Shown: one piece after another, positions 202 through 60,778 of the stretch | How positions within the stretch are numbered: position 1 is the first letter of the stretch | Layout: each line of letters starts with the position of its first letter | DNA from: an uncultured Gammaproteobacteria bacterium | GTDB taxonomy: Bacteria; Pseudomonadota; Gammaproteobacteria; SG8-11 | Direction of reading: 5' to 3' | Assembly: GCA_964654485.1 (NCBI GenBank) | Contig: CAZZJI010000011.1 | Span: forward strand, 1,256 to 65,255 | DNA length: 64,000 bases | Notes under the pieces: model-generated | Told to the model about the DNA's origin: nothing | Databases searched by the model: none | Seen by the model: only the letters and a program-made list of their open reading frames with translations | Translations under genes and position numbers: made by a program

Positions 202-1650
202 ATGCCACAAACAGAACATGAACAAATAGTAAATGTATTTAAATCTGTCGTCCCTTCGGTAGATTACTGGTCAATCAGGCTAGTGGATACAGAGTATGAA
301 CACATCTCTGTGCGCCAAAACGTGCTTCAACCACCGCATACCTGTTTTTCAACCGGTGTTTTTATCACAATAATTGTAAAAAACAGCATTGGTTATGCAG
401 CTACGAGCAACATAACGAAAGGCGGACTGCAACAAGCTGCCTTAAAAGCGAAAGACTGGGCGGAAACCTGCGCACCGCATACGCTGGTCGACGCCAACAA
501 ATTTCCAAAAATAGATTACAGCGGACAATATCGCACACCTATTGCGAAGCCATGGAGCGCAACTTGTTTTTCGGACAAATTATCATTCCTCCAAAATGCC
601 TGCCAATCGCTCAAAATCAGTGAAAATATTGTCGATTGGCAATCAACATTGAGTTCGAAGCAAAACCACACACTGCTTGTGACCAGTGCCGGTGGACGAA
701 TTGAACAATTTTTTCAGTACATCACACCCGGCCTTGTCGCGGTCGCAAACAGCGGCGCTGAAACTCAAATACGTACCGGTGGTGGTAACGGCAGTTCTGC
801 CCAGGGCGGCCTCGAGCAACTGGATCGAATGGGCTTTCCTGATGCCGCACCGCAAATAGCGGAGCAAGCGCTTCAATTGCTGGATGCACCCACCTGCCCT
901 ACTGATTCAATGGATTTATTACTGATGCCAGATCAAATGGTGCTTCAAATTCACGAAAGTATCGGTCATCCACTGGAACTGGACAGAATTCTAGGCGATG
1001 AACGAAATTATGCCGGTACCAGTTTTGTTACCTTAGATATGTTCGGGGAATATGAATATGGCTCTGAACTTTTGAATATCACATTTGATCCAAGCCACCC
1101 GGAACAACTTGCCAGTTATGGATTTGACGATGATGGCGCACCTGCTAAACATACCTACATCATTCGCAATGGTCGTCTGGAAACACCCCTGGGTGGACTC
1201 TATTCTCAAGCAAGAACCGATGTTAACGGGGTAGCTAACTCGCGTGCGTGTGACTGGAACAGGCCAACGATTGATCGTATGGCAAATCTTAATCTGGAGA
1301 CGGGTGACAGTAACATGAAAGAATTGGTGTCCAGTATCGAAAACGGCATCTTGATGGAGACCAATCAATCCTGGTCGATAGATGACAGCCGAAATAAATT
1401 TCAATTTGGTTGCGAGTTAGGAAAAATAATCGAACACGGCGAAATTAAAGGTTTGGTTAAAAACCCGAATTACCGCGGCATATCGGCTAATTTCTGGCGA
1501 AACCTGATCAAAGTCGGCGATAAATCAACCTTTGAAATTTCGGGGACACCCAACTGTGGTAAAGGTGAACCAAACCAAGTTATACATGTTGGCCATGCTT
1601 CACCTGCTTGCGTATTTAAAGATGTTGAGGTATTTGGAGGATCAGCATAA
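202..1650 (+). CDS. tldD: TldD-family zinc metalloprotease
   Basis: The translation carries the HExxxH-type motif 'HESIGHPLE' and overall TldD/PmbA-family architecture. The ORF track opens at a TTG (position 10), but the first 64 aa are hydrophobic and low-complexity. The ATG at 202 (MPQTEHEQ...) gives a normal length. The gene is coupled to the next one by a TAATG overlap. Confidence 0.85.
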   Translation: MPQTEHEQIVNVFKSVVPSVDYWSIRLVDTEYEHISVRQNVLQPPHTCFSTGVFITIIVKNSIGYAATSNITKGGLQQAALKAKDWAETCAPHTLVDANKFPKIDYSGQYRTPIAKPWSATCFSDKLSFLQNACQSLKISENIVDWQSTLSSKQNHTLLVTSAGGRIEQFFQYITPGLVAVANSGAETQIRTGGGNGSSAQGGLEQLDRMGFPDAAPQIAEQALQLLDAPTCPTDSMDLLLMPDQMVLQIHESIGHPLELDRILGDERNYAGTSFVTLDMFGEYEYGSELLNITFDPSHPEQLASYGFDDDGAPAKHTYIIRNGRLETPLGGLYSQARTDVNGVANSRACDWNRPTIDRMANLNLETGDSNMKELVSSIENGILMETNQSWSIDDSRNKFQFGCELGKIIEHGEIKGLVKNPNYRGISANFWRNLIKVGDKSTFEISGTPNCGKGEPNQVIHVGHASPACVFKDVEVFGGSA

Positions 1651-4476: not shown

Positions 4477-7149
4477 TTAATTCAAACTCTTGGTTACTAT
4501 TTCATAAACATCTTTAGAAAGATGTTCGCTTTCCTTGATTCGAATCAGTTCTGATTTCATTAATTCCTGTCTTTTTTCATCATACCGCCTCCAGAAACTA
4601 AATCCGCCCACCAATCTGGATGCTATCTGCGGGTTAATCTTATCTATTTCGATAACATAATCACTTAAAAATGAATATGCATTTCCGCTTTCGTCATGAA
4701 AATGCAATTGATTACCATGACAAAAAGCACCAATAAGCGATCTGATTTTATTTGGATTTTTAATTGAAAAATCGTTATGTGACGTTAATTTTTTCACATT
4801 TTCCAACGCGCCAGAACATCTTGACGTTGCCTGAATACTAAACCATTTATCGATAACCAGCGCATCCTCTTTCCATTTTTCATAGAAATCACTAATGACA
4901 ACTTTACGCTCATCACATTCGTTGTTCGCTAATGAAATCAGGGCAGCTATTGTATCAGTCATATTTTTTGAATTATTAAATTGATCAACACATTTTTTAG
5001 TTATTTTATTATCATTCAACTCCATCAAATAGCTTAAGCAAACATTCTTAAGATTGCGCTTTCCCACTGATTGCTGATCAAATTTATATTCACCCTCTTC
5101 TTCATTCGCCTTATAAACATTATAAAATGATTTTTCTAGCGTCTGTGCCAATACCGTTCTCAAATATCGACATGCATGATGGATCGCGACAGGATCAATC
5201 ACGTCCATAAATTCCGCTATATACGTTTCCGCGGGTAATATCAAAGACTTGGCAATCAAAGATTTTTCAATTTTAAAATTTTCAATATTTTTTCTGACGG
5301 CTGATATAATTAAATCAGGAACATGAAATGTTTTTCCCAATTTATAATCGTTGATGAGATTCAATATGGTTTTGGTAAACAGCTGTTGACCCGATTCCCA
5401 GCGATTAAACCCATCGCTGTCGTGCGACATGAGAAAACTACGTCGTGAATCAGTTAATTCAATATTTAGTTTTACTGGTGCCGAAAAACCTCTAAGCAAT
5501 GAGGGTACGGGCTCACTTTCTATGTCCAGAAAAGTGAAATTTTCTTCATTTTTAGTAACATTTAATATTCGAGTTCCCTCAACGGGTAATTCCCCTTCCT
5601 CCATTTTAAGAGGTATATCATCGCCATTACTATCGAGCAACCCTACGGCAAGTGGAATAAAGAATGTAGATTTAAATGCTTGTCCTGGTGTGGCCGAACA
5701 ACTTTGTTTTACTTTTAAAGTGTAGGTTTTTTTATCTGCATTGTATTCTGTCTCTACATCCAGCTCTGGTGTGCCTGCTTGACTGTACCAAAAAGCAAAT
5801 TGTTTAAAATCTATATTGTTTGAGCCACTATTCGCATCTTCTAATGCCTTTATAAAATCTTCCGTAGTAACAGCCTGACCATCGTGTCTTTCAAAATACA
5901 GATCCGTACCCTTACGAAACCCCTCCGCCCCTAATAGAACATGCAACATTCGAACAACTTCCGCACCTTTGTTATATACCGTCGCTGTGTAGAAATTATT
6001 TATTTCTAGATACGATCCAGGCCGAACCGGATGCGCCATCGGGCCAGCATCTTCACGAAATTGATGTATTCGTAACAGATTCACATCTTCGATACGTTTT
6101 ACACTTCGAGATGTCATATCCGCACTAAATTCCTGATCCCGAAAAACCGTAAATCCTTCTTTAAGACTGAGCTGGAACCAATCTCGACAAGTTACCCGGT
6201 TACCAGACCAGTTATGAAAATATTCATGCCCAATAACACCTTCTATGTTTTGATAATCACTGTCTGTTGCTGTTTCCGGTTTTGCTAATACATACTTGGA
6301 ATTAAATACATTTAAACCTTTATTTTCCATTGCGCCCATATTAAAATCATCGACTGCAACCACAATATATGTATCGAGATCATATTCTCGCCCATACACT
6401 TGCTCATCCCAACGCATGGAATTTATCAACGATTGCATCGCGTATCTACACTTATCAATATTATGGTGTTCTACGTAAATATACAGATGAATAGTCCGAC
6501 CTGACATCGTGACAAATTTATCTTCGATAAAAGACAAATCACCCGCCACCAATGCGAACAGATAAGAAGGTTTAGGGAAAGGATCCTGGTATTCTATCCA
6601 ATGTTCCAGGTCGTCTATTTCACCTTTATCAATACAATTACCATTTGATAAAAGAACCGGGTATTTTGATTTATTGGCAATTATTTTAGTTGTATAGCAC
6701 GCCATAACATCAGGGCGATCCAGAAAATAAGTAATTTCACGAAAACCTTGCGCTTCACATTGGGTACAAAAATTTCCACTTGATAAATACAAGCCACTTA
6801 GCGACGTGTTTTCTTTTGGATTAATACAGGTCTCTATTTCCAGCGTAAAACTGCTTTCTTGTATTGCATATAATGTTAATGATTCCGCGTCTGCTTTATA
6901 TTGATCTGGTGTCAGCTCTTTATTATTGATCCTCACCGATAATAATTGCAACTCTTCACCATCAAGAACAAGGTCCACGACCTTGCTTGCTGAATAGCAA
7001 TTTTTTTCAATAGTTAATTTTGATTTAACTACTGTTTTAGCTTCGTTTAGCTGAAAGGTTAAATGAACATTTTTAATTAGAAATGCGGAGGGGCAATATT
7101 CATTTAGATATGTTGTTTTTGGAGAAACTTCATTATTCTTATCTTGCAT
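4477..7149 (-). CDS. pepN: Aminopeptidase N (M1 family)
   Basis: Carries the GAMEN exopeptidase motif and the zinc motif HEYFHNWSGNRVT…LKEGFT. Length 890 aa. Confidence 0.95.
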   Translation of the reverse strand: MQDKNNEVSPKTTYLNEYCPSAFLIKNVHLTFQLNEAKTVVKSKLTIEKNCYSASKVVDLVLDGEELQLLSVRINNKELTPDQYKADAESLTLYAIQESSFTLEIETCINPKENTSLSGLYLSSGNFCTQCEAQGFREITYFLDRPDVMACYTTKIIANKSKYPVLLSNGNCIDKGEIDDLEHWIEYQDPFPKPSYLFALVAGDLSFIEDKFVTMSGRTIHLYIYVEHHNIDKCRYAMQSLINSMRWDEQVYGREYDLDTYIVVAVDDFNMGAMENKGLNVFNSKYVLAKPETATDSDYQNIEGVIGHEYFHNWSGNRVTCRDWFQLSLKEGFTVFRDQEFSADMTSRSVKRIEDVNLLRIHQFREDAGPMAHPVRPGSYLEINNFYTATVYNKGAEVVRMLHVLLGAEGFRKGTDLYFERHDGQAVTTEDFIKALEDANSGSNNIDFKQFAFWYSQAGTPELDVETEYNADKKTYTLKVKQSCSATPGQAFKSTFFIPLAVGLLDSNGDDIPLKMEEGELPVEGTRILNVTKNEENFTFLDIESEPVPSLLRGFSAPVKLNIELTDSRRSFLMSHDSDGFNRWESGQQLFTKTILNLINDYKLGKTFHVPDLIISAVRKNIENFKIEKSLIAKSLILPAETYIAEFMDVIDPVAIHHACRYLRTVLAQTLEKSFYNVYKANEEEGEYKFDQQSVGKRNLKNVCLSYLMELNDNKITKKCVDQFNNSKNMTDTIAALISLANNECDERKVVISDFYEKWKEDALVIDKWFSIQATSRCSGALENVKKLTSHNDFSIKNPNKIRSLIGAFCHGNQLHFHDESGNAYSFLSDYVIEIDKINPQIASRLVGGFSFWRRYDEKRQELMKSELIRIKESEHLSKDVYEIVTKSLN

Positions 7150-9959: not shown

Positions 9960-11970
9960 AGGTCACCTCAGCTTCTTCAACCGGGGCCAATTTATCGCGC
10001 CGTTTTTTCCACAAAAAATAGGCGCCCACCCCAATCAAACCCAGCAAGGCATTTACAACTAAGGCAATGGCAACAATCAAAACCCAACGCACACCCTCCT
10101 TCTCTCCCTCTTTATCTTCCGTCTTCTCTTCCTTTTTATCTTCCGCCTTCTCTTCCTCTTTCTCTTTCTTTATTGCTTTTTTCTTTTTAATTAACTTATT
10201 GTCTTGCGGCATGACTTCCGCGGCACCGCTATCGTTTTCCATAGAATTCGACAACTCCTTTATTTCACTCTCATGATCCGACTTAATTGAAACACTCTCT
10301 TCTTTATTTTCTTTATTTTCTTCATTAAGAGCATGAGCATCTGTTTTTTCGGACTCATCAGATACTGGCTGTTCAAGTTTGCCATCTTTTCCTATATACC
10401 CAGGAATTGTTTTTTCAATTTTAAATAATATTTTATCGCGATCCTTTACCCGGGCATAATATTCAATTATTAATGTTTCACCACTGTATTTTTTTGGCAG
10501 ATCAAAAGTCCATGTACTTTTATTTACTTCATTAATTTCTATGGCTAATGTTTCTTTCTCTATTTTTGCGACAAAAGATTTTATTTCCAGGCCTTTCAAT
10601 CGCAATTGATTCACCAAAGAAACTTGATAAACCTGCCCCTTTGCTGCATCCACTTGCGCGATCTCTGCACTTATTGGATCATTATGCACAGTAACAGCAA
10701 AAAACGCTTCTCGTTTAAATGTTGGGCCTTCAGCAATAATCGATATTTGATGCTTCCCTTTGAGCATATTTTTTAGTTTGGCATTATATTCACCATCACC
10801 TGTTTTTTGATCCGTATTCTCCCCATCATCCACTAAGGGTTCAAGTTGAAGCTCATCAGGCGATCCATCGGATGGCTTTGTATGTCTATAATTGAAATCT
10901 ATATGTTGAAGTAGTTTCTTATCATCAATAATTTCATTTTTTTGAATTAATTTGGCGCTTAGTAAAACTTCTTCGCCTTGTAATATATGATTTTCAATTT
11001 TTCTTGTCGACAGTTTTAAATTTGTCACCACCATAACCCGGTTGTCTGGGTCAATTTTCGAATTCATTCTCCAGGCACCCTCTTCCGGGTCATTGATTGT
11101 AATAAGATCGAAACCCTTTTCATGATGCCATTTCACATTTTTTGGGTGCTCGTTATTGCTAAATGATTTACCACCCGGAGTTAAAATACGTGTTTCCTTA
11201 TCTTTATCAGCGCGAAAAACAAGTAATGTCATGTCCTCAATACTTTTGTCTACGCCAAAGACATTATCGGTTAAAGGGAGTGTATCCGTCTGTGATGATT
11301 TTTCAAATAAGCGCAAAAATACACGTTGTAAATTGTTGGTGTCTTCCACTTTTTCATACCAGCCATCTGTTGAAACAGAAATCGTTTTCATTAACTCATG
11401 ATCGGCGTCTGACGACAGGGCAACGGTATGTACAGTGACGTCCGCATTTTTCAAGCGCGGTAAAATGGTTTTTATAATCCGCTCTCTGGATAATTTATTC
11501 AGCGTATTATCGTTCGAAACATCCACCATCCCATCACTAAGAAGAATAATAGTACGTTGAACTTTTGAATCGGGCTTGTTCCAATCAAAGGTGGACAGTC
11601 GTAATGCCTCTTCAATATTAGTAAACAAACCCAACGAATGAATATTGTCGGCTTCCTTTCGCGCTTTTTCGCGCCAGGACGAATTAACAATACCAAGTGG
11701 CACTGCCATGTTGACAAATTTTCCAAAGGTCCAGATACCTGAAGTTGCTGTTTCAGGCAATATACCCACTAACAAGCGTAACGCTGCCGAACGTAAATTA
11801 TCAGGATCTGTTCGCTTCATGCTTCCGGAAACATCAATCAGTACGCGCAAGTCTACCTTCGATTCTGCAGGAGAATCTGCGCTAAAAACCGGACCATTGG
11901 CAATCACCATCAAGAAGAAAAATAACAAACTCTTTGCCAAACAGGACCCTTTTATATAGAGCCTACTCAT
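9952..11970 (-). CDS. Secreted, membrane-anchored von Willebrand factor A (vWA) domain protein
   Basis: It has a signal peptide, the MIDAS motif DVSGSM near the N-terminus, a long beta-rich middle region, a K/E-rich low-complexity segment and a C-terminal TM helix followed by KKRRDK. Confidence 0.8.
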   Translation of the reverse strand: MSRLYIKGSCLAKSLLFFFLMVIANGPVFSADSPAESKVDLRVLIDVSGSMKRTDPDNLRSAALRLLVGILPETATSGIWTFGKFVNMAVPLGIVNSSWREKARKEADNIHSLGLFTNIEEALRLSTFDWNKPDSKVQRTIILLSDGMVDVSNDNTLNKLSRERIIKTILPRLKNADVTVHTVALSSDADHELMKTISVSTDGWYEKVEDTNNLQRVFLRLFEKSSQTDTLPLTDNVFGVDKSIEDMTLLVFRADKDKETRILTPGGKSFSNNEHPKNVKWHHEKGFDLITINDPEEGAWRMNSKIDPDNRVMVVTNLKLSTRKIENHILQGEEVLLSAKLIQKNEIIDDKKLLQHIDFNYRHTKPSDGSPDELQLEPLVDDGENTDQKTGDGEYNAKLKNMLKGKHQISIIAEGPTFKREAFFAVTVHNDPISAEIAQVDAAKGQVYQVSLVNQLRLKGLEIKSFVAKIEKETLAIEINEVNKSTWTFDLPKKYSGETLIIEYYARVKDRDKILFKIEKTIPGYIGKDGKLEQPVSDESEKTDAHALNEENKENKEESVSIKSDHESEIKELSNSMENDSGAAEVMPQDNKLIKKKKAIKKEKEEEKAEDKKEEKTEDKEGEKEGVRWVLIVAIALVVNALLGLIGVGAYFLWKKRRDKLAPVEEAEVTYE

Positions 11971-12066: not shown

Positions 12067-12564
12067 TTAAAATCTACCGCCGCCTACATAACGTTGACGC
12101 CAATAAGGATCGCCCAGTTTAGAGACCATGACTTTTTTACCAGAAGAGGGGGCATGAATAAAACGATCACTGCCCGCGTAGATACCAACATGCGACGTTT
12201 TGCTGCCGGCCAAATTAAAAAACACCAAATCACCTACATATAAATTCGATCTCTTAATACGCTTTGTATTGTTATAAAGTGACAATGCAGTGCGTGGTAC
12301 ATTCATCCCCGCCTTTTTATAGGAATAAAAAATCAAGCCACTGCAATCGAAACCTTTAAGCGTGGAACCGCCATAACGATAAGGTGTACCTATCACATTC
12401 TGCGCAATGCGCGCCGCATCCTGACCCAGGTTTTTACTATAAACCTTGCCAGCAGTTGGCTTGCCCTTGGTATGCCCCGCCGTGCGCTCAGGTGAATTAC
12501 CGCAACCAATAAAAATAATGGTCGTCGCCAGAATTAAACAGACAGAACGTATTGTCCTCATCAT
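12067..12564 (-). CDS. NlpC/P60 (C40) family peptidoglycan endopeptidase lipoprotein
   Basis: A lipobox is present (IFIGC). The catalytic Cys context GFDCSGLIFYSY and the downstream HVGIY motif are both visible. Confidence 0.85.
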   Translation of the reverse strand: MMRTIRSVCLILATTIIFIGCGNSPERTAGHTKGKPTAGKVYSKNLGQDAARIAQNVIGTPYRYGGSTLKGFDCSGLIFYSYKKAGMNVPRTALSLYNNTKRIKRSNLYVGDLVFFNLAGSKTSHVGIYAGSDRFIHAPSSGKKVMVSKLGDPYWRQRYVGGGRF

Positions 12565-12843
12565 CCACCTTGCTGGTTTTTTAACAGTATTTATTATTAT
12601 GCTTGATATCTCCTACTTTATGTCGGCTAAAAAGAATTTTTTTACAGTAAAATAAAACCACTTTTGGTGCGTCATGCCCCTAAAACATTAATTAAATACA
12701 ACAAGTTAAGACAACAATATTTTAAAATACGCAGGCCAATCAATATATCGTTATTGTATAATAATATCTATTTATAGTATTTCACATTATAATAAATATT
12801 GGATATTGTATGTTCACCCCCTTAAGTAAGACCCCTACCCACT

Positions 12844-12870
12844 AACCGCCTTAACCGGCGGTTTTTTTTT
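12844..12870 (+). terminator. Intrinsic terminator-like hairpin plus T9 run (copy 1)
   Basis: AACCGCC-ttaacc-GGCGGTT is followed by TTTTTTT (9 consecutive T counting the stem end). It is preceded by the conserved box CCCCCTTAAGTAAGACCCCTAC. Confidence 0.6.
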
Positions 12871-13016
12871 GCACATGGATGTGCTTATGTCTCGAGAGCA
12901 CATGGACGTGCGAAGAGACTTTGCACAGGGGATGTGCTTATGCCGTGAAGCCCATGGACGGACGAGAACGGCTTTGCACATGGATGTGCTTATGTCTCGA
13001 GAGCACAAAGACGTAA
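12871..13016 (+). repeat. Tandem array 1 of about 26-nt sub-units. Five GGA-loop hairpins with CsrA/RsmA-site character. Candidate regulatory RNA.
   Basis: Hairpins lie at 12871-84, 12898-911, 12923-37, 12950-63 and 12976-89 (GCAC-AUGGAU-GUGC type). The units alternate X-Y-X, each about 52 nt. The last sub-unit is degenerate. Confidence 0.85.
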
Positions 13017-13130
13017 CCCAACCATTATACAAAAATAAAATAATAATATAGATTTTAATTATTTTCCATTATATAAAAATCCCGATATAGTTTACCTACC
13101 CCCTTAAGTAATACCTCTACACCCCACTTT

Positions 13131-13160
13131 AAGCCGCCACCCCCAAGGCGGCTTTTTTTT
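13131..13160 (+). terminator. Intrinsic terminator-like hairpin plus T8 run (copy 2)
   Basis: AAGCCGCC-acccccaa-GGCGGCTT runs into TTTTTTTT. It is preceded by the box CCCCCTTAAGTAATACCTCTAC, homologous to copy 1. Confidence 0.6.
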
Positions 13161-13355
13161 GCACAGGGATGTGCTTATGTCTCGAGAGCACACGGACGTG
13201 CGAAGAGACTTTGCACAGGGATTGTGCTTATGCCGTGAAGCCCATGGACGGGCGAGAACGGCTTTGCACAGGGATTGTGCTTATGTCTCGAGAGCACATG
13301 GACGTGCGAAGAGACTTTGCTCAGAAATTGTGCTTATGCCACGAGCCCACAACCA
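13161..13355 (+). repeat. Tandem array 2 of about 26-nt sub-units. Six GGA-loop hairpins with CsrA/RsmA-site character. Candidate regulatory RNA or leader.
   Basis: Hairpins lie at 13161-74, 13188-201, 13213-27, 13240-53, 13266-80 and 13294-307. The units alternate X-Y-X-Y(degenerate). The array ends about 30 nt before the ATG at 13384. Confidence 0.85.
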
Positions 13356-13383
13356 CCCCAAAATACGTTACAATCCACAAACA

Positions 13384-15195
13384 ATGTATGACCTCTTCAA
13401 AACAACTAAACTTCTTCTACTCACCGTTTTGCTCATCCCACTCTATTCCCATGCCAAAATAATCAACATCCCTAATGATTTCTCAACAATTCAACAAGGG
13501 ATTGATGAAGCAACCGACGGAGATGAAATTGAGATTGAACCAGGCACATACAAAGAAAACCTGACCCTAAAAAGCAACATCGCACTACACGGTCTGGAAA
13601 CAGCCCGAACCATCATCGACGCACCCAACAGTAGCCCGGCGATAAGTATCAATAACTACACCAATGTCACTATTCAAAATCTCACGTTCACCAGTTCAAC
13701 AATCGGCATCCAGATAACCAACAGCACTAGCAACATTATTATTACCAACAACGTGTTTGCGCTGGGAACCCGTGCCACGCCCAATGGCACTGCGATCGAC
13801 GTAACTGACGATATCTCTGATGTCAGTATCTTTTTTAATACCTTTTACGGCAACGATATCGCAATAGACCGTAATTCTAATTTATCTATTGAAAACAATA
13901 TTTTTTCAGACAACACGACAGACATCGAAAGCGGCCTTGAAACCAATATTCATTTCAATTGCTTCGATTCTGCCAAAACGGCAGACAGTAACTTCGGCAG
14001 TAGCTTCGTTGATAACGCAAATATTTCATTTGCTGATGTAGGATTAAAGGATTTTCACTTGCAAGCGCAAGCGGACCCGAACCCGGATCCGGATCCGGAC
14101 CGATCCTGCATTGATCTTAGCAATGCAAGTGGCAAAACTGACATCATCGACAGCACTGTCGCTGACGCCGGCGCCTACGGCGGCGACAACGCAGACCCAC
14201 TTCCGTACCCACCACAAAATATATTATTGACGCTCGGTGGCACAACCCTCGAACCAGAAATCAAAGTTGAGTGGAACGATAACCTGTCCTACCTAATCGG
14301 TGGCTACAAGGTATTTTATGACTCTGATAAGTCTGGTCCACCCTACGATGGCAAAACCAATACCGGAGTCGCCACAGAAAATTCACCAACAGATGTTGCA
14401 CTACCACTGCTGGAGATAGAAAAGGTATTAAAAGATTTAATTGTACCCGCACCCACGATAACGCCGTCTGTTATAAGCGTCTCTCCCAGTTCACAAACGT
14501 TGGATATAAGCTGGACTGCGAACCCGAATGTAACGAGTTATACATTAAATTACGGCATTACCAGTGTAACTGAAAATACGGAGACAGAGATAACAGGAAC
14601 CAATTTTACTATTACAGGTTTAACGAATAATACCGCTTATCAAATCATGGTAACGTCACACTCTCAACCAAAGTTCTATATTGCGGTTAAAACTTACGAC
14701 AATACAACAACGGCGACCGAAAGTAACTTTTCGTTAGAAAAATCCATCAACGTAGGCACCCAAACTGATACACCATCAAGTGTCGTCACCTCAATACCGG
14801 AAGAAGTGGTGGCTTTTCCAAATTTACCGGGCGAAGGCTGCTTTATTGCGACCGCGGCGTTCGGCTATTACTCAGCACCGCAAGTGCAGATATTACGTGA
14901 CTTCCGCGATCAATTCTTACTTAACAACCCGGCAGGTAAAATATTTGTTGATTGGTACTACCGCAATGGCCCCGTCGCCGCACAATATTTACATCGTTAC
15001 CCGGAAATGAAACCTATTGTCAGGGCATTACTATTTCCACTTATTTATTTCGCTAAGTTCTTACTCAACACGGCTATTGCCACACAATTACTGGTCACGT
15101 CGTTATTGATGATTTTAATTATTATTTTCATGCATTCTCAAATTAAAAGCCGAATTAAAAACCGAAGAAGAAATCGCAATGTACATTACAGCTAA
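13384..15195 (+). CDS. Secreted right-handed beta-helix (PbH1) repeat protein with FN3-like domains and a C-terminal Cys-motif and TM module
   Basis: The signal peptide MYDLFKTTKLLLLTVLLIPLYSHA starts at the ATG at 13384. The track's TTG at 13159 reads through the repeats and is rejected. Repeated NxTIxNxxF turns are present (NVTIQNLTF, NIIITNNVF, NLSIENNIF). There is a PNPDPDPD linker and FN3-like segments (…LDISWTANPNVTSYTLNYG…TNNTAYQIMV). The C-terminus reads GEGCFIATAAFGYYSAPQVQILRDFRDQFLL, followed by hydrophobic helices and a basic tail. Confidence 0.8.
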   Translation: MYDLFKTTKLLLLTVLLIPLYSHAKIINIPNDFSTIQQGIDEATDGDEIEIEPGTYKENLTLKSNIALHGLETARTIIDAPNSSPAISINNYTNVTIQNLTFTSSTIGIQITNSTSNIIITNNVFALGTRATPNGTAIDVTDDISDVSIFFNTFYGNDIAIDRNSNLSIENNIFSDNTTDIESGLETNIHFNCFDSAKTADSNFGSSFVDNANISFADVGLKDFHLQAQADPNPDPDPDRSCIDLSNASGKTDIIDSTVADAGAYGGDNADPLPYPPQNILLTLGGTTLEPEIKVEWNDNLSYLIGGYKVFYDSDKSGPPYDGKTNTGVATENSPTDVALPLLEIEKVLKDLIVPAPTITPSVISVSPSSQTLDISWTANPNVTSYTLNYGITSVTENTETEITGTNFTITGLTNNTAYQIMVTSHSQPKFYIAVKTYDNTTTATESNFSLEKSINVGTQTDTPSSVVTSIPEEVVAFPNLPGEGCFIATAAFGYYSAPQVQILRDFRDQFLLNNPAGKIFVDWYYRNGPVAAQYLHRYPEMKPIVRALLFPLIYFAKFLLNTAIATQLLVTSLLMILIIIFMHSQIKSRIKNRRRNRNVHYS

Positions 15196-15856
15196 TAAAT
15201 TAGTCCAGCTCGTCACGCTGATTCTGATATCGGTTTTACAGATAAGCTCCGCCTATGCCAAATCGGCAGACAAAAAAAACGCGATAGCAGAAAAACCAAG
15301 CTGGACACTTGAATTCAAGATCGGGCGCTTTGAGCCAGATATTGATAACTGGGAAACATTTTATGGAAATGATTATACGCATGATTTAGCAGGGGCGTTC
15401 TCATATAAACTGTTAGAGCAGATTGAATTTGGCCTACAAGGTGGCTGGATCAGAGACCGGGGACAAGGCTTTTTACCCAGCAATAATATTGCCGGAGGCA
15501 GAGTAAAATATCAGTTGTTTCCTCTGAATGCATTTGTATTATTCCGCGGGATATATACGCCCAATCAATGGTTCGTGCCGTATATCGGTGGCGGTTTCTC
15601 AAGGACTTATTACAAAATAAATATCGAAAATCAAAGTAGCATTGATGGCGCTGAAAATGGCACACACTATCGCGCTGGTATTCAGTTTTTATTGAACAAT
15701 ATTAATAAAAAAGGCACGCGTAATTTAAGAAAGTCGTATGGCATAATCAATACGTATTTTTTTATTGAAGTCCAGGAACTGAAAGCAGAAGTTGGCTCAT
15801 TAAACCTCGATATTGGCGGAAGAAGCACGATGATGGGTATTTTACTGGAATACTAG
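15179..15856 (+). CDS. Small outer-membrane beta-barrel protein (family unassigned)
   Basis: It has a signal peptide (…ISSAYA/KS) and alternating amphipathic beta-strand pattern with G/Y-rich strands. The C-terminus ends in an aromatic residue (…GILLEY). The start overlaps the upstream gene by 17 nt. Confidence 0.65.
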   Translation: MYITANKLVQLVTLILISVLQISSAYAKSADKKNAIAEKPSWTLEFKIGRFEPDIDNWETFYGNDYTHDLAGAFSYKLLEQIEFGLQGGWIRDRGQGFLPSNNIAGGRVKYQLFPLNAFVLFRGIYTPNQWFVPYIGGGFSRTYYKINIENQSSIDGAENGTHYRAGIQFLLNNINKKGTRNLRKSYGIINTYFFIEVQELKAEVGSLNLDIGGRSTMMGILLEY

Positions 15857-16287: not shown

Positions 16288-18837
16288 TTGAAAAAACATT
16301 TTTTTAACAGTTTACGCAATCGATACTTGTCTGCCTCAATCCTTTTGGGGTTAATGGTGCTCACGACCGCGTATTTAACTTATTTGTACGTTAATAACGC
16401 GCGCCAGCAATCTGTTGTTAATCTCGAAACACGCAATCAATTACTTGAACACAGTCGGCTGACACGTAACTCGGTATGGAAAACACGAGAATCACTAGAA
16501 GCATTCTTACTGCAACCAGACAATACCCTTTTTAGAGAAAATGTTTATGAATCAATAAGAGATGCAGCACTGCACTCGCAAGCGCTTACAAAACGATTGC
16601 GGGAAAATGCAGGTGAATATTCGATCGTTTCAAAACAATTACAAAAAACACTAATGGAATTGGAAAAACATGCTGATGTATTGATAGAGACCCATAGTGA
16701 TTCGACAAAACAATACCCCGCCCTGTTTGCCGCAAGAAAATACATGCTCCCTAATCATCGAATATTTTATACCGCTGCATCTCTGGCGCTCGATGAAATA
16801 ATGGAAGAAATTCAGGATAACGAAAATAACGAAAATAATAATGCATATCAAACCTTTGTTGAGGTTCGTCATCTCTGGACGCAGATGATTTCTAATTTTC
16901 GTATGTATCTGGCAAATCGCATGGGGTCGTTTAATAAGGATATTCTGCCGGTACAAGAGAATGAAACAGATATACTCTATGAGGAATTAGTTAATCAATT
17001 GCTCATCCTGAAATCATTGGATGAAGCGGGAGACCTCGGTTTTCAGGCAAGCATATCTCTTGGAGAATTAAACCAGGCCGCGACTGACTGGTATATTGGG
17101 TTTCAGGAAATCAAGCGTATAAATGCATCGGACGAATGGCGTACAGACAGTGCGCTCTTAAGAGAAAACGTACATCCTCTTCTTGAAGCTACTTGGAATT
17201 TATTACTTTCTATTGATATTTCGATCGAAGCATCGGCTAACAATGATGTTAAAAAATTAACTGAAGTAACAAGAAATCAGACACAACTACTGTGGCTCCT
17301 TACAGCACTGGGAATAACTGCCATTATCGCTGGTTTCATATTGCTGGAAAAACAAATTATCAAACCAATTGCAACCGTATCACAAGCATTAAAAGCCAAA
17401 GCCATCGGCGTCGAGGGAACAAACCTACCGGTGACAACGTTACGCGAAACGCAAGATCTGGTTGATGCATACACAGAAATGAATAAACAAGTCAATGCAC
17501 GTCAAGTTGATCTGGAGTATCAGGCGCTTCATGATGATCTTACCGGGCTGCCAAATAGAACATTATTACTTGATCGTCTACAGCAGGCGATTTTTACTTC
17601 GCGGCGCGAACATAACCGTTTGGGGCTGTTAATAATGGATCTTGACGGATTTAAAGAGGTCAATGACACTGTCGGTCATCAGGTTGGCGATGCCTTATTA
17701 AAAGAAGTGGGTGTCAGACTGCTCATGACTATCCGAGAAATGGATACGGTCGCACGTTTAGGGGGTGATGAATTCGCCGTTTTACTGCCTGACTCAGACG
17801 ATGCACGCGCCATGAAAGTCGCAGTAAAAATCAGAGAAGCGTTAGAGGCAGTGTTTGAAATTGATGATTTGCGTTTGTATATCGGCGCCAGCATCGGCGT
17901 TGCCATATACCCTAAAAATGGCACACGCGCTGAAACCTTGATTCAGCGTGCAGACGTCGCCATGTATGTTGCCAAAAGAAATAAATCAGGACAAGCGCTT
18001 TATAATCCCAAAGAAGACCAACATAGTGTGGGACGACTTGCATTGATGAGTGATCTGCGTCATGCCCTGGATCTTGATTCGTTGCAGCTACATTATCAGC
18101 CAAAAATTAATATTAAAACCAACGAAATAGTCGGCGTTGAAGCCCTGCTTCGATGGGATCACCCAAAAATTGGCGCCATTGCCCCAGATGAAATTATTCC
18201 TCTTGCTGAACAAACGGGCCTAATCAAACCACTAACGCTCTGGGTACTTAATCATGCGATCAAGCAAAATAAAACTTGGTTACGCAATAATATTAAGTTT
18301 CGAGTTGCAGTTAATTTATCTGTATATAACCTGCAGGATCAGGAGTTTATAGAGCAATTAAAAACGTCTCTGGATTTATATAACTTATCGCCAGAATTTA
18401 TAAACCTGGAAATAACTGAAAGTACGATGATGGCGAATCCCACTCACGCGGTGGATATTCTGAAACAACTTGAATCCATGGGTGTAAAAATTTCTATTGA
18501 TGATTTTGGTACTGGCTTTTCGTCGTTAGCCTATCTGAAACAATTACCTGTTGAAGAGCTTAAAATTGACAAGTCTTTTGTGATTAATATGACCACAGAT
18601 GACGATGATGCCGTCATCGTTCGTTCAACTATTGATCTAGCTCACAACCTTGGTCTAAAGGTCGTCGCCGAAGGTGTAGAATCAAAAGATGTATACAACT
18701 TACTGAAAATGCTGGGCTGTGATATGGCTCAAGGTACGTATCTCGGCGCACCCATGTCTGCTGCCGCACTTGAAAAGTGGTTAGATAAACGAATCCAGCA
18801 TGATGGAAACCAGAATATAGTGAAAATTATCAAATAA
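16288..18837 (+). CDS. Membrane sensor with GGDEF (diguanylate cyclase) and EAL (phosphodiesterase) domains
   Basis: Two TM helices flank a helical N-terminal region of about 300 aa. The GGDEF motif is intact (RLGGDEFAVLL). EAL signatures are intact (EALLRW, DDFGTGFSSL, EGVE). The start codon is TTG. Confidence 0.9.
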   Translation: MKKHFFNSLRNRYLSASILLGLMVLTTAYLTYLYVNNARQQSVVNLETRNQLLEHSRLTRNSVWKTRESLEAFLLQPDNTLFRENVYESIRDAALHSQALTKRLRENAGEYSIVSKQLQKTLMELEKHADVLIETHSDSTKQYPALFAARKYMLPNHRIFYTAASLALDEIMEEIQDNENNENNNAYQTFVEVRHLWTQMISNFRMYLANRMGSFNKDILPVQENETDILYEELVNQLLILKSLDEAGDLGFQASISLGELNQAATDWYIGFQEIKRINASDEWRTDSALLRENVHPLLEATWNLLLSIDISIEASANNDVKKLTEVTRNQTQLLWLLTALGITAIIAGFILLEKQIIKPIATVSQALKAKAIGVEGTNLPVTTLRETQDLVDAYTEMNKQVNARQVDLEYQALHDDLTGLPNRTLLLDRLQQAIFTSRREHNRLGLLIMDLDGFKEVNDTVGHQVGDALLKEVGVRLLMTIREMDTVARLGGDEFAVLLPDSDDARAMKVAVKIREALEAVFEIDDLRLYIGASIGVAIYPKNGTRAETLIQRADVAMYVAKRNKSGQALYNPKEDQHSVGRLALMSDLRHALDLDSLQLHYQPKINIKTNEIVGVEALLRWDHPKIGAIAPDEIIPLAEQTGLIKPLTLWVLNHAIKQNKTWLRNNIKFRVAVNLSVYNLQDQEFIEQLKTSLDLYNLSPEFINLEITESTMMANPTHAVDILKQLESMGVKISIDDFGTGFSSLAYLKQLPVEELKIDKSFVINMTTDDDDAVIVRSTIDLAHNLGLKVVAEGVESKDVYNLLKMLGCDMAQGTYLGAPMSAAALEKWLDKRIQHDGNQNIVKIIK

Positions 18838-41180: not shown

Positions 41181-41363
41181 AAAACTACTCCTTATCAGGG
41201 TTAGGCCTCCATATATCCCATGTACTAACCTTTGCCGATTATTTGCACAACACAGTTGTACAAATTCAGTAAGGCACCCTAGCCCATGTGTCGATATATG
41301 TGCGTAATTAAGGAACTATTTACTCTCTTTCACTCTTCTCGACCCAGCTCTCTCTCACCTTAC

Positions 41364-56798: not shown

Positions 56799-57320
56799 TC
56801 AGGAATGCAACGCTTCCACTTTCTCGGCAGGTTTATCTGGCGCCACTTCCTCGGCAGGTTTATCTGACGCCACTTCTTCCGCGGGAGCAGAATCAACAGA
56901 TGGCGCTTCGTTGGGCGTCGAATCAACGCCCGTTGCATCAGTCGCCGCAACACCAGGAGCCACGACACTTGGCGGCGCTGGTGTTTCAGCAGTATTCGAC
57001 TCTACTGGTTTTACCAGCGGAGATGCTTCCGTTACCGCACGTTTCATGACTAGAACCAAATTACGTATCACGGCATCATTAAAACGGAACGCATTTTCCA
57101 ACTCTTCCAATGCATCTTTACCACACTCAATATTCATGAGTACATAATGGGCTTTATGAATTTTGTTGATAGGATAAGTAAGTTGGCGCCGACCCCAGTC
57201 TTCCAGTCGATGAATCGCGCCTTTTTTGGATTCGATGATACTGCGATAACGCTCTATCATTGAGGGTACTTGTTCGCTCTGGTCAGGATGGACCAGAAAC
57301 ACTATTTCATAATGTCGCAT
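56799..57320 (-). CDS. rpsF: 30S ribosomal protein S6 with a P/A/E-rich C-terminal extension
   Basis: The core starts [18 protein letters not shown]. The extension of about 70 aa ends with the repeat [33 protein letters not shown]. Confidence 0.93.
56816..56885. repeat. 27-nt tandem repeat (about 2.5 copies) inside the 3' end of rpsF
   Basis: CCACTTTCTCGGCAGGTTTATCTGGCG / CCACTTCCTCGGCAGGTTTATCTGACG / CCACTTCTTCCGCGGG… The repeat is in frame (9 codons per unit). Confidence 0.85.
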
Positions 57321-60692: not shown

Positions 60693-60778
60693 GCCGAGGT
60701 GGTGAAATTGGTAGACACGCATGCTTCAGGTGCATGTGAGCTTTGCTCATGGAGGTTCAAGTCCTCTCCTCGGCACCA
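60693..60778 (+). tRNA. tRNA-Leu (anticodon CAG), class II with a long variable arm and encoded CCA
   Basis: The acceptor stem GCCGAGG/CCTCGGC is followed by A and CCA. The anticodon stem CATGC/GCATG carries the loop TTCAGGT, giving anticodon CAG. The variable arm is TGAGCTTTGCTCA and the T-loop is GGTTCAAGTCC. Confidence 0.9.

Follow-up and report, generated by a model that had tools for sequence, protein, structure and literature searches.

In a 64,000-nucleotide stretch of DNA from an uncultured gammaproteobacterium (positions 1,256 to 65,255 of contig CAZZJI010000011.1, assembly GCA_964654485.1; the whole stretch is hereinafter the window, with coordinates counted from its first letter), two tandem arrays of hairpins that present GGA in their loops are located on the plus strand, at 12868-13016 (array 1) and 13158-13346 (array 2). 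These arrays are made of units of a widespread family of structured repeats that is absent from curated libraries. The defining traits of the family are that the repeat starts in the U/T-tract of an intrinsic terminator, that it has spread as a discrete unit of ~53 nt, and that its A(N)GGAN loops are kept while its stems covary. The interpretation that we favor, tentatively and with somewhat less than even confidence, is that the arrays represent a domesticated repeat, mobile at least at some time in the past, that would be expressed by terminator read-through and would bind the global regulator CsrA; read-through, binding and titration of CsrA are what we infer from the sequence.

A first-pass annotation of this DNA had described 11 GGA hairpins in two tandem arrays, and Tandem Repeats Finder, a covariance model of the unit and local folding all bear out this description. 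Tandem Repeats Finder delineates the arrays as 12868-13007 (period 52, 2.7 copies) and 13158-13345 (period 53, 3.6 copies). The covariance model, run with filters off over both strands of the 64 kb, identifies 7 units of 52-53 nt, all of them on the plus strand at this locus (four of the 7 had served as the training set for the model), and gives no match better than E=1.2 on either strand in the rest of the window. Array 1 comprises two units with both an X and a Y hairpin (described below), at 12868-12919 (outer stem GUCUC/GAGAC) and 12920-12972 (outer stem GCCGU/ACGGC), followed by a partial, degenerate unit at 12973-13012 with AAAGAC in place of GGA; array 2 comprises units at 13158-13209, 13210-13262 and 13263-13315, followed by a degenerate unit at 13316-13346. 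In either array, GGA is lost from the final unit. With the pairing span limited to 40 nt or less, five GGAs of array 1 and six of array 2, 11 altogether, fall in hairpin loops, all of the form A(N)GGAN, and a 12th lies within a stem. Locus-specific, one-strand arrays exist as described.

The concentration of the motif is far above the background. There are 12 GGAs in the 337 nt of the arrays compared to 9 per kb window-wide; GCACANGGAYGTGC, with two mismatches or fewer, is matched 11 times against 1.7 expected, and none of 100 shuffles scores as high; and when A(N)GGAN loops closed by 4-bp stems are searched for strictly, 7 such hairpins turn up in 485 nt as compared to ~7 per 64 kb per strand in the background. 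Generic hairpins of this kind are several hundred-fold enriched at the locus. Consecutive GGAs are 25-28 nt apart (about 25-27 nt in the first-pass annotation). The strand specificity that had been claimed holds inside the arrays (12 GGA vs no TCC in the 337 nt) but not in the AT-rich spacer between them, which contains two TCC.

The unit consists of a 5' UUU, the X hairpin, a UUAU linker, and the two-tier Y hairpin. The X hairpin reads GCAC-ANGGAN-GUGC in the window and has the family form G(C/U)AC-A-N-GGA-N-GU(G/A)C. In the Y hairpin, a 5-bp outer stem leads into an asymmetric internal loop rich in purines (GAGA/GAA, GAA/GAGA, GA/AGGA or GGGA/GGA), beyond which a 4-bp inner stem closes a C-ANGGAN-G loop. 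Given that adjacent units in the window bear different Y stems, with GUCUC..GAGAC plus GCAC/GUGC alternating with GCCGU..ACGGC plus GCCC/GGGC, the arrays acquire a higher-order period of 105 nt.

The family was collected by a scan for the X motif in one genome per species, and its counts are lower bounds among the matches listed. About half of these matches are chance singletons in unrelated taxa, and at least ~50 loci possess X, UUAU and the Y hairpin. The carriers include Sedimenticola, Arenicella, Ectothiorhodospiraceae, a Solemya symbiont, Marinobacterium, Shewanella, Thalassotalea, Colwelliaceae, Algicola, Lysobacterales, many gammaproteobacterial metagenome-assembled genomes (MAGs) and Riflebacteria. 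When 39 units from more than 30 loci were registered and aligned by hand, 96.5% of the alignment cells proved to be paired, compared to 22-48% in slid controls; the members were picked partly for foldability, which somewhat inflates this percentage and leaves the double substitutions unaffected. Eleven of the 14 pairs show changes on both sides, and the covariation score of 0.561, compared to 0.179 in shuffles, was reached by none of 500 shuffled sets. The Y hairpin was absent from the search pattern, and GGA is present in 37 of the 39 Y loops and the C-A...G flanks in at least 38 of the 39. Among the non-canonical pairs of the Y helices, G.U outnumbers A.C by 9 to 2, an excess that weakly favors the GGA strand as the strand that folds.

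No Rfam family, Csr/Rsm families included, matches the repeat at gathering score in 18 related loci, and no description of a unit-like repeat that adjoins terminators or binds CsrA was found in Rfam or in the literature searched. A BLASTN search with array 2 against 72,556 plasmids returned no match, and the X-motif scan of viral contigs yielded 6 matches, none with a Y hairpin. Two further arrays occur at related loci (designated here by L and a number). In the cultured Thalassotalea litorea MCCC 1K03283 (L093, NZ_VCBC01000012), at least eight near-identical tandem units with about three GGAs each occupy 6199-6640 on the minus strand, after a 46-codon open reading frame (ORF) and its terminator, with more GGA hairpin repeats beyond; in a Lysobacterales MAG (L022, 5607-5720), the array consists of 29-nt repeats, each X plus the linker, with two GGAs per repeat.

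Both arrays in the window start inside the T-tract of an intrinsic terminator, and the same placement recurs across the family: the first unit adjoins a canonical intrinsic terminator in 21 of the 37 independent family loci as opposed to none of the 60 pattern matches outside the family. In the typical layout, a GC-rich hairpin is flush with a T-run that merges into the UUUGCAC of the unit, and the 5' flank of the unit is T-rich at all family loci. The terminators themselves are mutually unrelated in sequence. Approximately 13 of them directly follow coding genes and the others are orphans, like those in the window; the genes that precede the units include, as judged by eye, those for a porin, an H+-pyrophosphatase, a peroxiredoxin and an FKBP as well as gyrB. 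Given that the family units abut terminators, a dedicated promoter for the arrays is ruled out, and any role at the RNA level would need read-through. In two MAGs (L027, 2536, and L034, 5087), the unit is located right after the terminator of an H+-translocating pyrophosphatase gene, the gene being assigned by eye; possibly, this is one insertion that orthologous sites have retained. At a Sedimenticola locus (L068, ~720-740, minus strand), an orphan terminator lies ~130 nt 3' of a near-consensus sigma-54 promoter (TGGCAC-N5-GTGCA), an arrangement suggestive of a further small RNA gene followed by units.

In the window, the intergenic region 12565-13383 is a module of ~290 nt duplicated in tandem, each copy comprising, in this order, an AT-rich sigma-70-type promoter, 7 nt, a G-poor leader starting with ACCCCCUUAAGUAA, an intrinsic terminator and an array. 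The promoter and terminator scans place the promoter of module 1 at 12781-12809 on the plus strand (-35 TTCACA, 17-nt spacer, -10 TATTGT, predicted start ~12816), followed by a short RNA at 12816-12870 (plus strand; leader ACCCCCUUAAGUAAGACCCCUACCCACUAA) with the terminator stem at 12844-12863 and nine T at 12862-12870. The promoter of module 2 is located at 13063-13091 (plus strand; -35 TTTCCA, -10 TATAGT, predicted start ~13098) and its short RNA at 13098-13160 (plus strand; leader ACCCCCUUAAGUAAUACCUCUACACCCCACUUU), with the terminator stem at 13131-13154 and eight T at 13153-13160. The stretches 12781-12870 and 13063-13160 are accordingly describable as paralogous small-RNA-like genes on the plus strand, with leaders of the form ACCCCCUUAAGUAA(G/U)ACC.. 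and near-consensus promoters. The leader motif CCCCTTAAGTAA occurs within the window only at the two modules; these have no Rfam match, and their C-rich leader has no complementary target beyond chance within the window. Because the terminator precedes the array and the array has no promoter of its own, expression of the array depends on read-through; indeed, the T-tract continues straight into the first hairpin and leaves no space for a promoter.

Orthologous loci were found via homologs of the NlpC/P60 peptidase gene that lies divergently on the other side of the region (12067-12564, minus strand; Pfam scan), and the percentages given in brackets in this paragraph are NlpC/P60 identities. 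Two modules, both with an array, are present in L124 (85%), L123 (86%; the same MAG as L103) and L126 (68%), and one module with an array in L147 (68%) and L144/L145 (63%). Altogether, an array behind the promoter-leader-terminator module is kept in 6 of 7 related lineages, and the covariance model detects units at all orthologous loci except L146 (54%), none of which contributed training sequences. Nucleotide identity to the window amounts to 84% for the flanking genes, 89% for promoter plus leader, and 85-91% for the arrays. The arrays are thus at least as conserved as the flanking genes, and given that their identity matches or exceeds that of these genes, they are not drifting like neutral DNA. 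Compensatory changes are apparent in place: in L124, the X stem is GCGC..GCGC instead of the GCAC..GUGC of the window, and in Y, AUCUC/GAGAU plus ACAC/GUGU take the place of GUCUC/GAGAC plus GCAC/GUGC; in L147, the X stems are GGCC or GCC. In L126, many units have shrunk to a head plus GAAGAGAC, with the outer stem lost and the GGA hairpin kept. The promoter blocks are kept between the paralogous modules and in L123, L124 and L126 (by alignment) as well as in L144, L146 and L147 (by eye), and the leader motif is kept in orthologs at 54-100% NlpC/P60 identity, even in L146, which lacks the array. In a near-identical contig from a marine metagenome (L001, ERZ909563; 945-1040, minus strand), array 1 contains a single unit rather than the three of the window; the 105-nt difference reflects either strain-level copy-number variation or assembly collapse. 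Given that near-identical sequences differ in copy number, the units behind the terminators appear to turn over fast while the GGA heads are retained. An NlpC/P60-guided scan of JGI metagenome contigs yielded only relatives of 45% identity or less and no orthologous loci.

That the unit is or was mobile follows from a locus (L112) where one X-Y unit, exactly 53 nt long and on the opposite strand, interrupts a RAYT-type Y1 transposase gene. Removal of the unit restores the reading frame, and the protein thus repaired is matched without a break by Y1_Tnp (residues 13-122) and by the NCBIfam model REP_Tyr_transpos (residues 4-138); intact homologs of this transposase read MPRANRYFIPGHIWHITHRCHQKEF across the junction. 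A second unit at L112 is inserted in a hairpin resembling a repetitive extragenic palindrome (REP), and an unoccupied copy of this hairpin is present in the same locus. At neither of these two junctions, for both of which an unoccupied reference is available, is there a target-site duplication. The RAYT itself was considered as the mover of the unit and rejected, because its family is flanked by other repeats (GGGTCNGACCC-ACGYAAGT) and the covariance model finds no unit beside its homologs. The flanking sequences are inverted copies of GGGTCNGACCC-ACG(C/T)AAGTTATTGAA, at L127 330-360 and 650-680, L132 2800-2830 and L112 ~2335, and presumably are the cognate REP or terminal repeats of the RAYT; one of those at L112 is itself interrupted by an X-Y unit. 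A large family of RAYT-type genes also shares a conserved 5' untranslated region (UTR) hairpin, CAUUUC-AUGGAU-GAAAUG, ~12 nt 5' of the Shine-Dalgarno sequence AAGGAGGA (L112 2196-2250; L127 700-770; L130 1950-2000; L132 1950-2000), which by its sequence has the appearance of the classic two-site layout of a CsrA-repressed leader. In Lysobacterales, the X-Y unit is found at 4 loci with ~95% identity within a 165-nt composite that includes other hairpins and occurs at three or more loci (L042, L091, L111); at L091, an ORF resembling an IS110-family transposase (..GVDVSKDHLDV..) starts 330 nt downstream. The closest MAG has at least two loci (L103 and L123), some other MAGs have at least 4-8, and the window has one in 64 kb; in Riflebacteria, the units occur in either orientation relative to the neighboring ORFs. 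Scattering of units in both orientations had been named at the outset as the mark of a REP-like selfish repeat. Such scattering is indeed seen elsewhere, with at least 4-8 loci per MAG in several lineages and both orientations relative to the flanking ORFs in Riflebacteria, but not in the window or its lineage, where the arrays are locus-specific and conserved across relatives.

The match to CsrA sites is what connects this repeat to regulation. The CsrA consensus obtained by SELEX, RUACARGGAUGU, has invariant ACA and GGA and a nearly invariant GU; most of the selected ligands are hexaloop hairpins with up to four stem pairs in which AC is paired with GU, RsmE recognizes an ANGGAN loop, and a CsrA dimer bridges sites located 10-63 nt apart (PMC7652899). 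The heads of X and of Y in the window (GC-AC-ANGGAN-GU-GC), located 25-28 nt apart, comply with all of these rules, and GCACAGGGAUGU agrees with the SELEX consensus at 11 of 12 positions, which is in accord with the near-match reported in the first-pass annotation. Its further claim, that the hairpins conform to the structural consensus of a CsrA/RsmE site, also stands given the fit of the heads to the published rules and the family-wide retention of the loop while the stems covary. A CsrA-binding role is ranked first because it seems unlikely that two independent hairpins would match by chance while their stems change.

The scenario that we prefer, namely a domesticated repeat read through from upstream promoters and bound by CsrA, can be outlined as follows. 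Most transcripts from the two strong promoters would stop at the terminators as short C-rich RNAs, and the fraction that reads through would carry 5-6 co-transcriptionally folded GGA hairpins spaced by 25-28 nt. CsrA dimers would bind these hairpins, bridging neighboring heads, and the read-through RNA would thereby titrate CsrA; alternatively, in the case of array 2, the downstream operon could be placed under CsrA control. Terminator 2 would stop the read-through from promoter 1, and that from promoter 2 would enter the beta-helix protein gene downstream. On this reading, the arrays would be sponge-like in action, yet neither a member of the CsrB/RsmXYZ group nor a stand-alone small RNA (sRNA) gene. 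The more far-reaching version, in which the repeat is a mobile, terminator-targeted cassette that installs high-affinity CsrA sites after transcription units and has been domesticated here into two read-through sponge arrays coupled to a pair of strongly expressed C-rich sRNAs, appears rather doubtful.

Several lines of evidence weigh against the proposed CsrA-binding read-through arrays. Both arrays follow good intrinsic terminators (7-8 bp stem, U8-U9) with no promoter between terminator and array, and no terminator separates array 2 from the ATG at 13384. The unrestricted minimum free energy fold is a nested inter-unit structure that is more stable by 7-10 kcal/mol than the row of local hairpins, and the row is seen only once the pairing span is limited; moreover, the selection of alignment members for foldability, mentioned above, also belongs here. 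The Rfam check for Csr/Rsm models that had been suggested turned out negative, with no match at gathering score across the window and none at E up to 10 over 12400-13600. The GacA/UvrY box TGTAAGN6CTTACA, a frequent though not invariable feature of Csr/Rsm sRNA genes, is, with up to 3 mismatches allowed, not found in 12.0-13.4 kb (17 occurrences in the window vs 26 expected), and a tblastn search did not find csrA in the 64-kb window. Elsewhere, many single units sit after ordinary genes, and the unit is dispersed and multicopy (at least 6 contigs in Algicola, 4 loci in CSMAG_2548, at least 8 loci in Riflebacteria). In the Thalassotalea array, the units are near-identical recent copies, and the X stem is broken in units 2-8 (GCUAA..UGUGC). 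Finally, L146 has the module with the array reduced to a remnant and, because the module is kept there without it, the array is dispensable.

The rival explanation that survives best is that the repeat is a selfish single-stranded DNA hairpin element akin to REP, the bacterial interspersed mosaic element (BIME) or the palindrome-associated transposable element (PATE), moved by an enzyme perhaps of the HuH or IS110 type. Such an element would insert without target duplication at T-runs beside hairpins, its arrays would be resized by unequal recombination between heads, and recognition by the mover would account for the conservation of the loops and the covariation of the stems, the likeness to CsrA sites being coincidental or secondary. 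A selfish-repeat explanation is quite possible for the family, and overall we consider this rival possible, if on balance unlikely. It accounts well for the 53-nt unit that splits the L112 RAYT gene and the second one in the REP-like hairpin, both without duplications, as well as for the multiple copies in several MAGs (Algicola, Lysobacterales, CSMAG_2548 and Riflebacteria), the decay of the terminal units and the variation of copy number between near-identical strains; the association with terminator T-tracts (21 of 37 loci vs 0 of 60 controls) suggests target choice. It accounts less well for the state of the arrays in the window and its relatives, which are at least as conserved as the neighboring coding DNA and show compensatory changes in place and GGA heads that outlast the integrity of the unit, features unexpected for dead copies. 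Furthermore, copy number in the lineage is low (a single locus within the 64 kb), the unit has no associated transposase, given that the one RAYT encountered has other cognate repeats, and the GTAG/CGTC tags and alternating orientation of REP/BIME are missing. Chance would also have to account for the exact fit of both heads to the CsrA consensus.

A purely cis-acting role, with array 2 serving as a CsrA-responsive leader of the beta-helix, outer-membrane protein and GGDEF-EAL gene cluster, or with the units acting as 3'-end stabilizers, back-up terminators or insulators, appears improbable. That no terminator separates array 2 from the ATG at 13384 in any ortholog would suit a leader, as would the biofilm and cyclic di-GMP character of the downstream genes, which are of a type commonly controlled by CsrA (PMC7652899); a U-rich stretch follows each hairpin, the X hairpins scored as terminator-like in the scan, and elsewhere units follow genes for a porin, a peroxiredoxin, an FKBP and H+-PPase as well as gyrB (by eye). 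The start region of the beta-helix gene (13369-13386, plus strand) argues the other way: it consists of TACAAT, 9 nt and ATG, with no Shine-Dalgarno sequence, and is conserved, as TACAATCCACAAA(C/T)AATG in L124, L126 and L147 and as TACAAT-N9-ATG in L146. This pattern suggests that the gene has its own promoter and a leaderless or near-leaderless mRNA. Because the TACAAT region looks like a separate promoter, array 2 would lie between terminator 2 and the beta-helix promoter, and given this start region and the lack of a Shine-Dalgarno sequence, a long leader would be poorly translated. In addition, array 1 lacks a coding sequence of its own downstream, and a terminator or stabilizer role leaves the invariant A(N)GGAN loops unexplained.

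The original annotation regarded the locus primarily as a candidate Csr/Rsm decoy RNA locus, which could be a new family or a CsrA-titrating mRNA leader; as stand-alone sRNA genes, the arrays would each have their own promoter and terminator. The consensus CsrA-type hairpins on which that proposal was built are confirmed, they are dense, and the arrays are conserved in the lineage, but the layout of a stand-alone sRNA gene and an Rfam match are both lacking, and we now regard such genes as very improbable. On the plus strand, promoter-like sites are found only 5' of the terminators, with no room for a promoter in the T-tract; array 2 has no 3' terminator; there is neither an Rfam match nor a GacA/UvrY box; and the terminators that the family follows at many other loci belong to ordinary coding genes. 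The least probable alternatives are a DNA operator array, a CRISPR- or TIGR-like guide array and a coding sequence: the heads are DNA palindromes (GCACAT..ATGTGC) 5' of a promoter and the arrays are regular, but the stems vary freely (GCAC, GCGC, GGCC, GCCC, GUAC, UACC), which a fixed operator would not allow, unique spacers are absent (the Y segments being repeated hairpins), as are cas or tas genes nearby, and with a period of 52-53 nt, which 3 does not divide, the frame shifts from unit to unit.

Downstream of array 2, the window encodes a secreted beta-helix/fn3 protein of 603 aa (13384-15195, plus strand; Pfam scan), the orthologs of which have Beta_helix/NosD matches and for which an exact look-up returned no record, followed by genes for an outer-membrane beta-barrel protein (15179-15856) and a GGDEF-EAL protein (16288-18837). 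No transposase gene was found in the window. Two other tandem repeats fall inside ORF coordinates, at 10096-10169 (24 nt, 2.9 copies), in the minus-strand gene of a VWA-domain protein, and at 56816-56876 (27 nt, 2.3 copies). The Rfam matches in the window are t44 RNA (74 bits) and a tRNA, at 41200-41322 (minus strand) and 60693-60775 (plus strand), which is consistent with the gammaproteobacterial origin of the DNA; over the window and the related loci together, only t44, tRNAs and AsdA were matched, none of them at the repeat.

In many bacteria, CsrA/RsmA controls virulence and the decision between a motile and a biofilm lifestyle, and the decoy RNAs of this system, the sequences of which are not conserved, are for that reason difficult to detect. 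The repeat described here is a defined structured element with a working covariance model and consensus CsrA sites, present across several gammaproteobacterial orders and beyond. If CsrA binds it, decoy sites could spread in modular form, the Csr network would gain terminator read-through as an input, and Csr antagonists of uncultured marine lineages could be uncovered by searching for the unit. Should the cassette version hold as well, it would provide a new route by which the network of a global RNA-binding regulator and its decoys are built or rewired, and candidate CsrA/RsmA antagonists for gammaproteobacteria without a known Csr sRNA, such as the Lysobacterales array at L022. If CsrA does not bind, the unit still represents a new family of terminator-associated extragenic repeats, and a warning that the density of GGA hairpins alone can lead to false predictions of Csr sRNAs.

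Among known systems, the arrays share with the Csr/Rsm sponges (CsrB, CsrC, RsmX, RsmY and RsmZ) the one-strand GGA hairpin loops, the ANGGAN/RUACARGGAUGU heads and the spacing that a dimer can bridge, and with these sponges, including lineage-specific ones such as Pf1-3 of Pseudoalteromonas (PMC11882849), also the tandem copies and the poor sequence conservation between lineages. In contrast to the sponges, they have no model match, promoter of their own or GacA/UvrY box, the terminator is located 5' rather than 3', and the unit is a strictly periodic two-hairpin element that is dispersed and inserted at unrelated loci in many taxa. Like REP, BIME and REPIN elements, which are short imperfect extragenic palindromes often found at the 3' ends of genes, the unit is intergenic (at 37 loci), forms tandem mosaics of variable copy number with compensatory stems, shows evidence of insertion and is multicopy in some genomes. 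Unlike them, it has all heads of every array in one direction, with no inverted pair and no GTAG/CGTC tag in the consensus; it has no cognate RAYT, is present here in very low copy, carries CsrA-type loops and is flush with terminator T-tracts. PATEs derived from IS200/IS605 have two similar end hairpins on the same strand, insert without target duplication beside a short specific sequence and can form head-to-tail arrays. The architecture of the unit is compatible with this scheme, but the unit is only 52 nt long with the left hairpin 3 nt from its end, no TnpA partner was found, and the apparent target is a T-run behind a hairpin. Titrators borne on 3' UTRs or mRNAs, such as RsmW, are found upstream of the terminator, and processing releases them. 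The arrays share with them the coupling of RNA synthesis to transcription of an upstream gene, with no dedicated promoter, and differ in that their sites, where binding of CsrA is so far what we infer, lie beyond the terminator; RsmW of P. aeruginosa is one of the RNAs listed in PMC11882849. Lacking several defining features of each class, the arrays resemble the Csr/Rsm sponges functionally and the REP/BIME elements structurally and in their genome dynamics.

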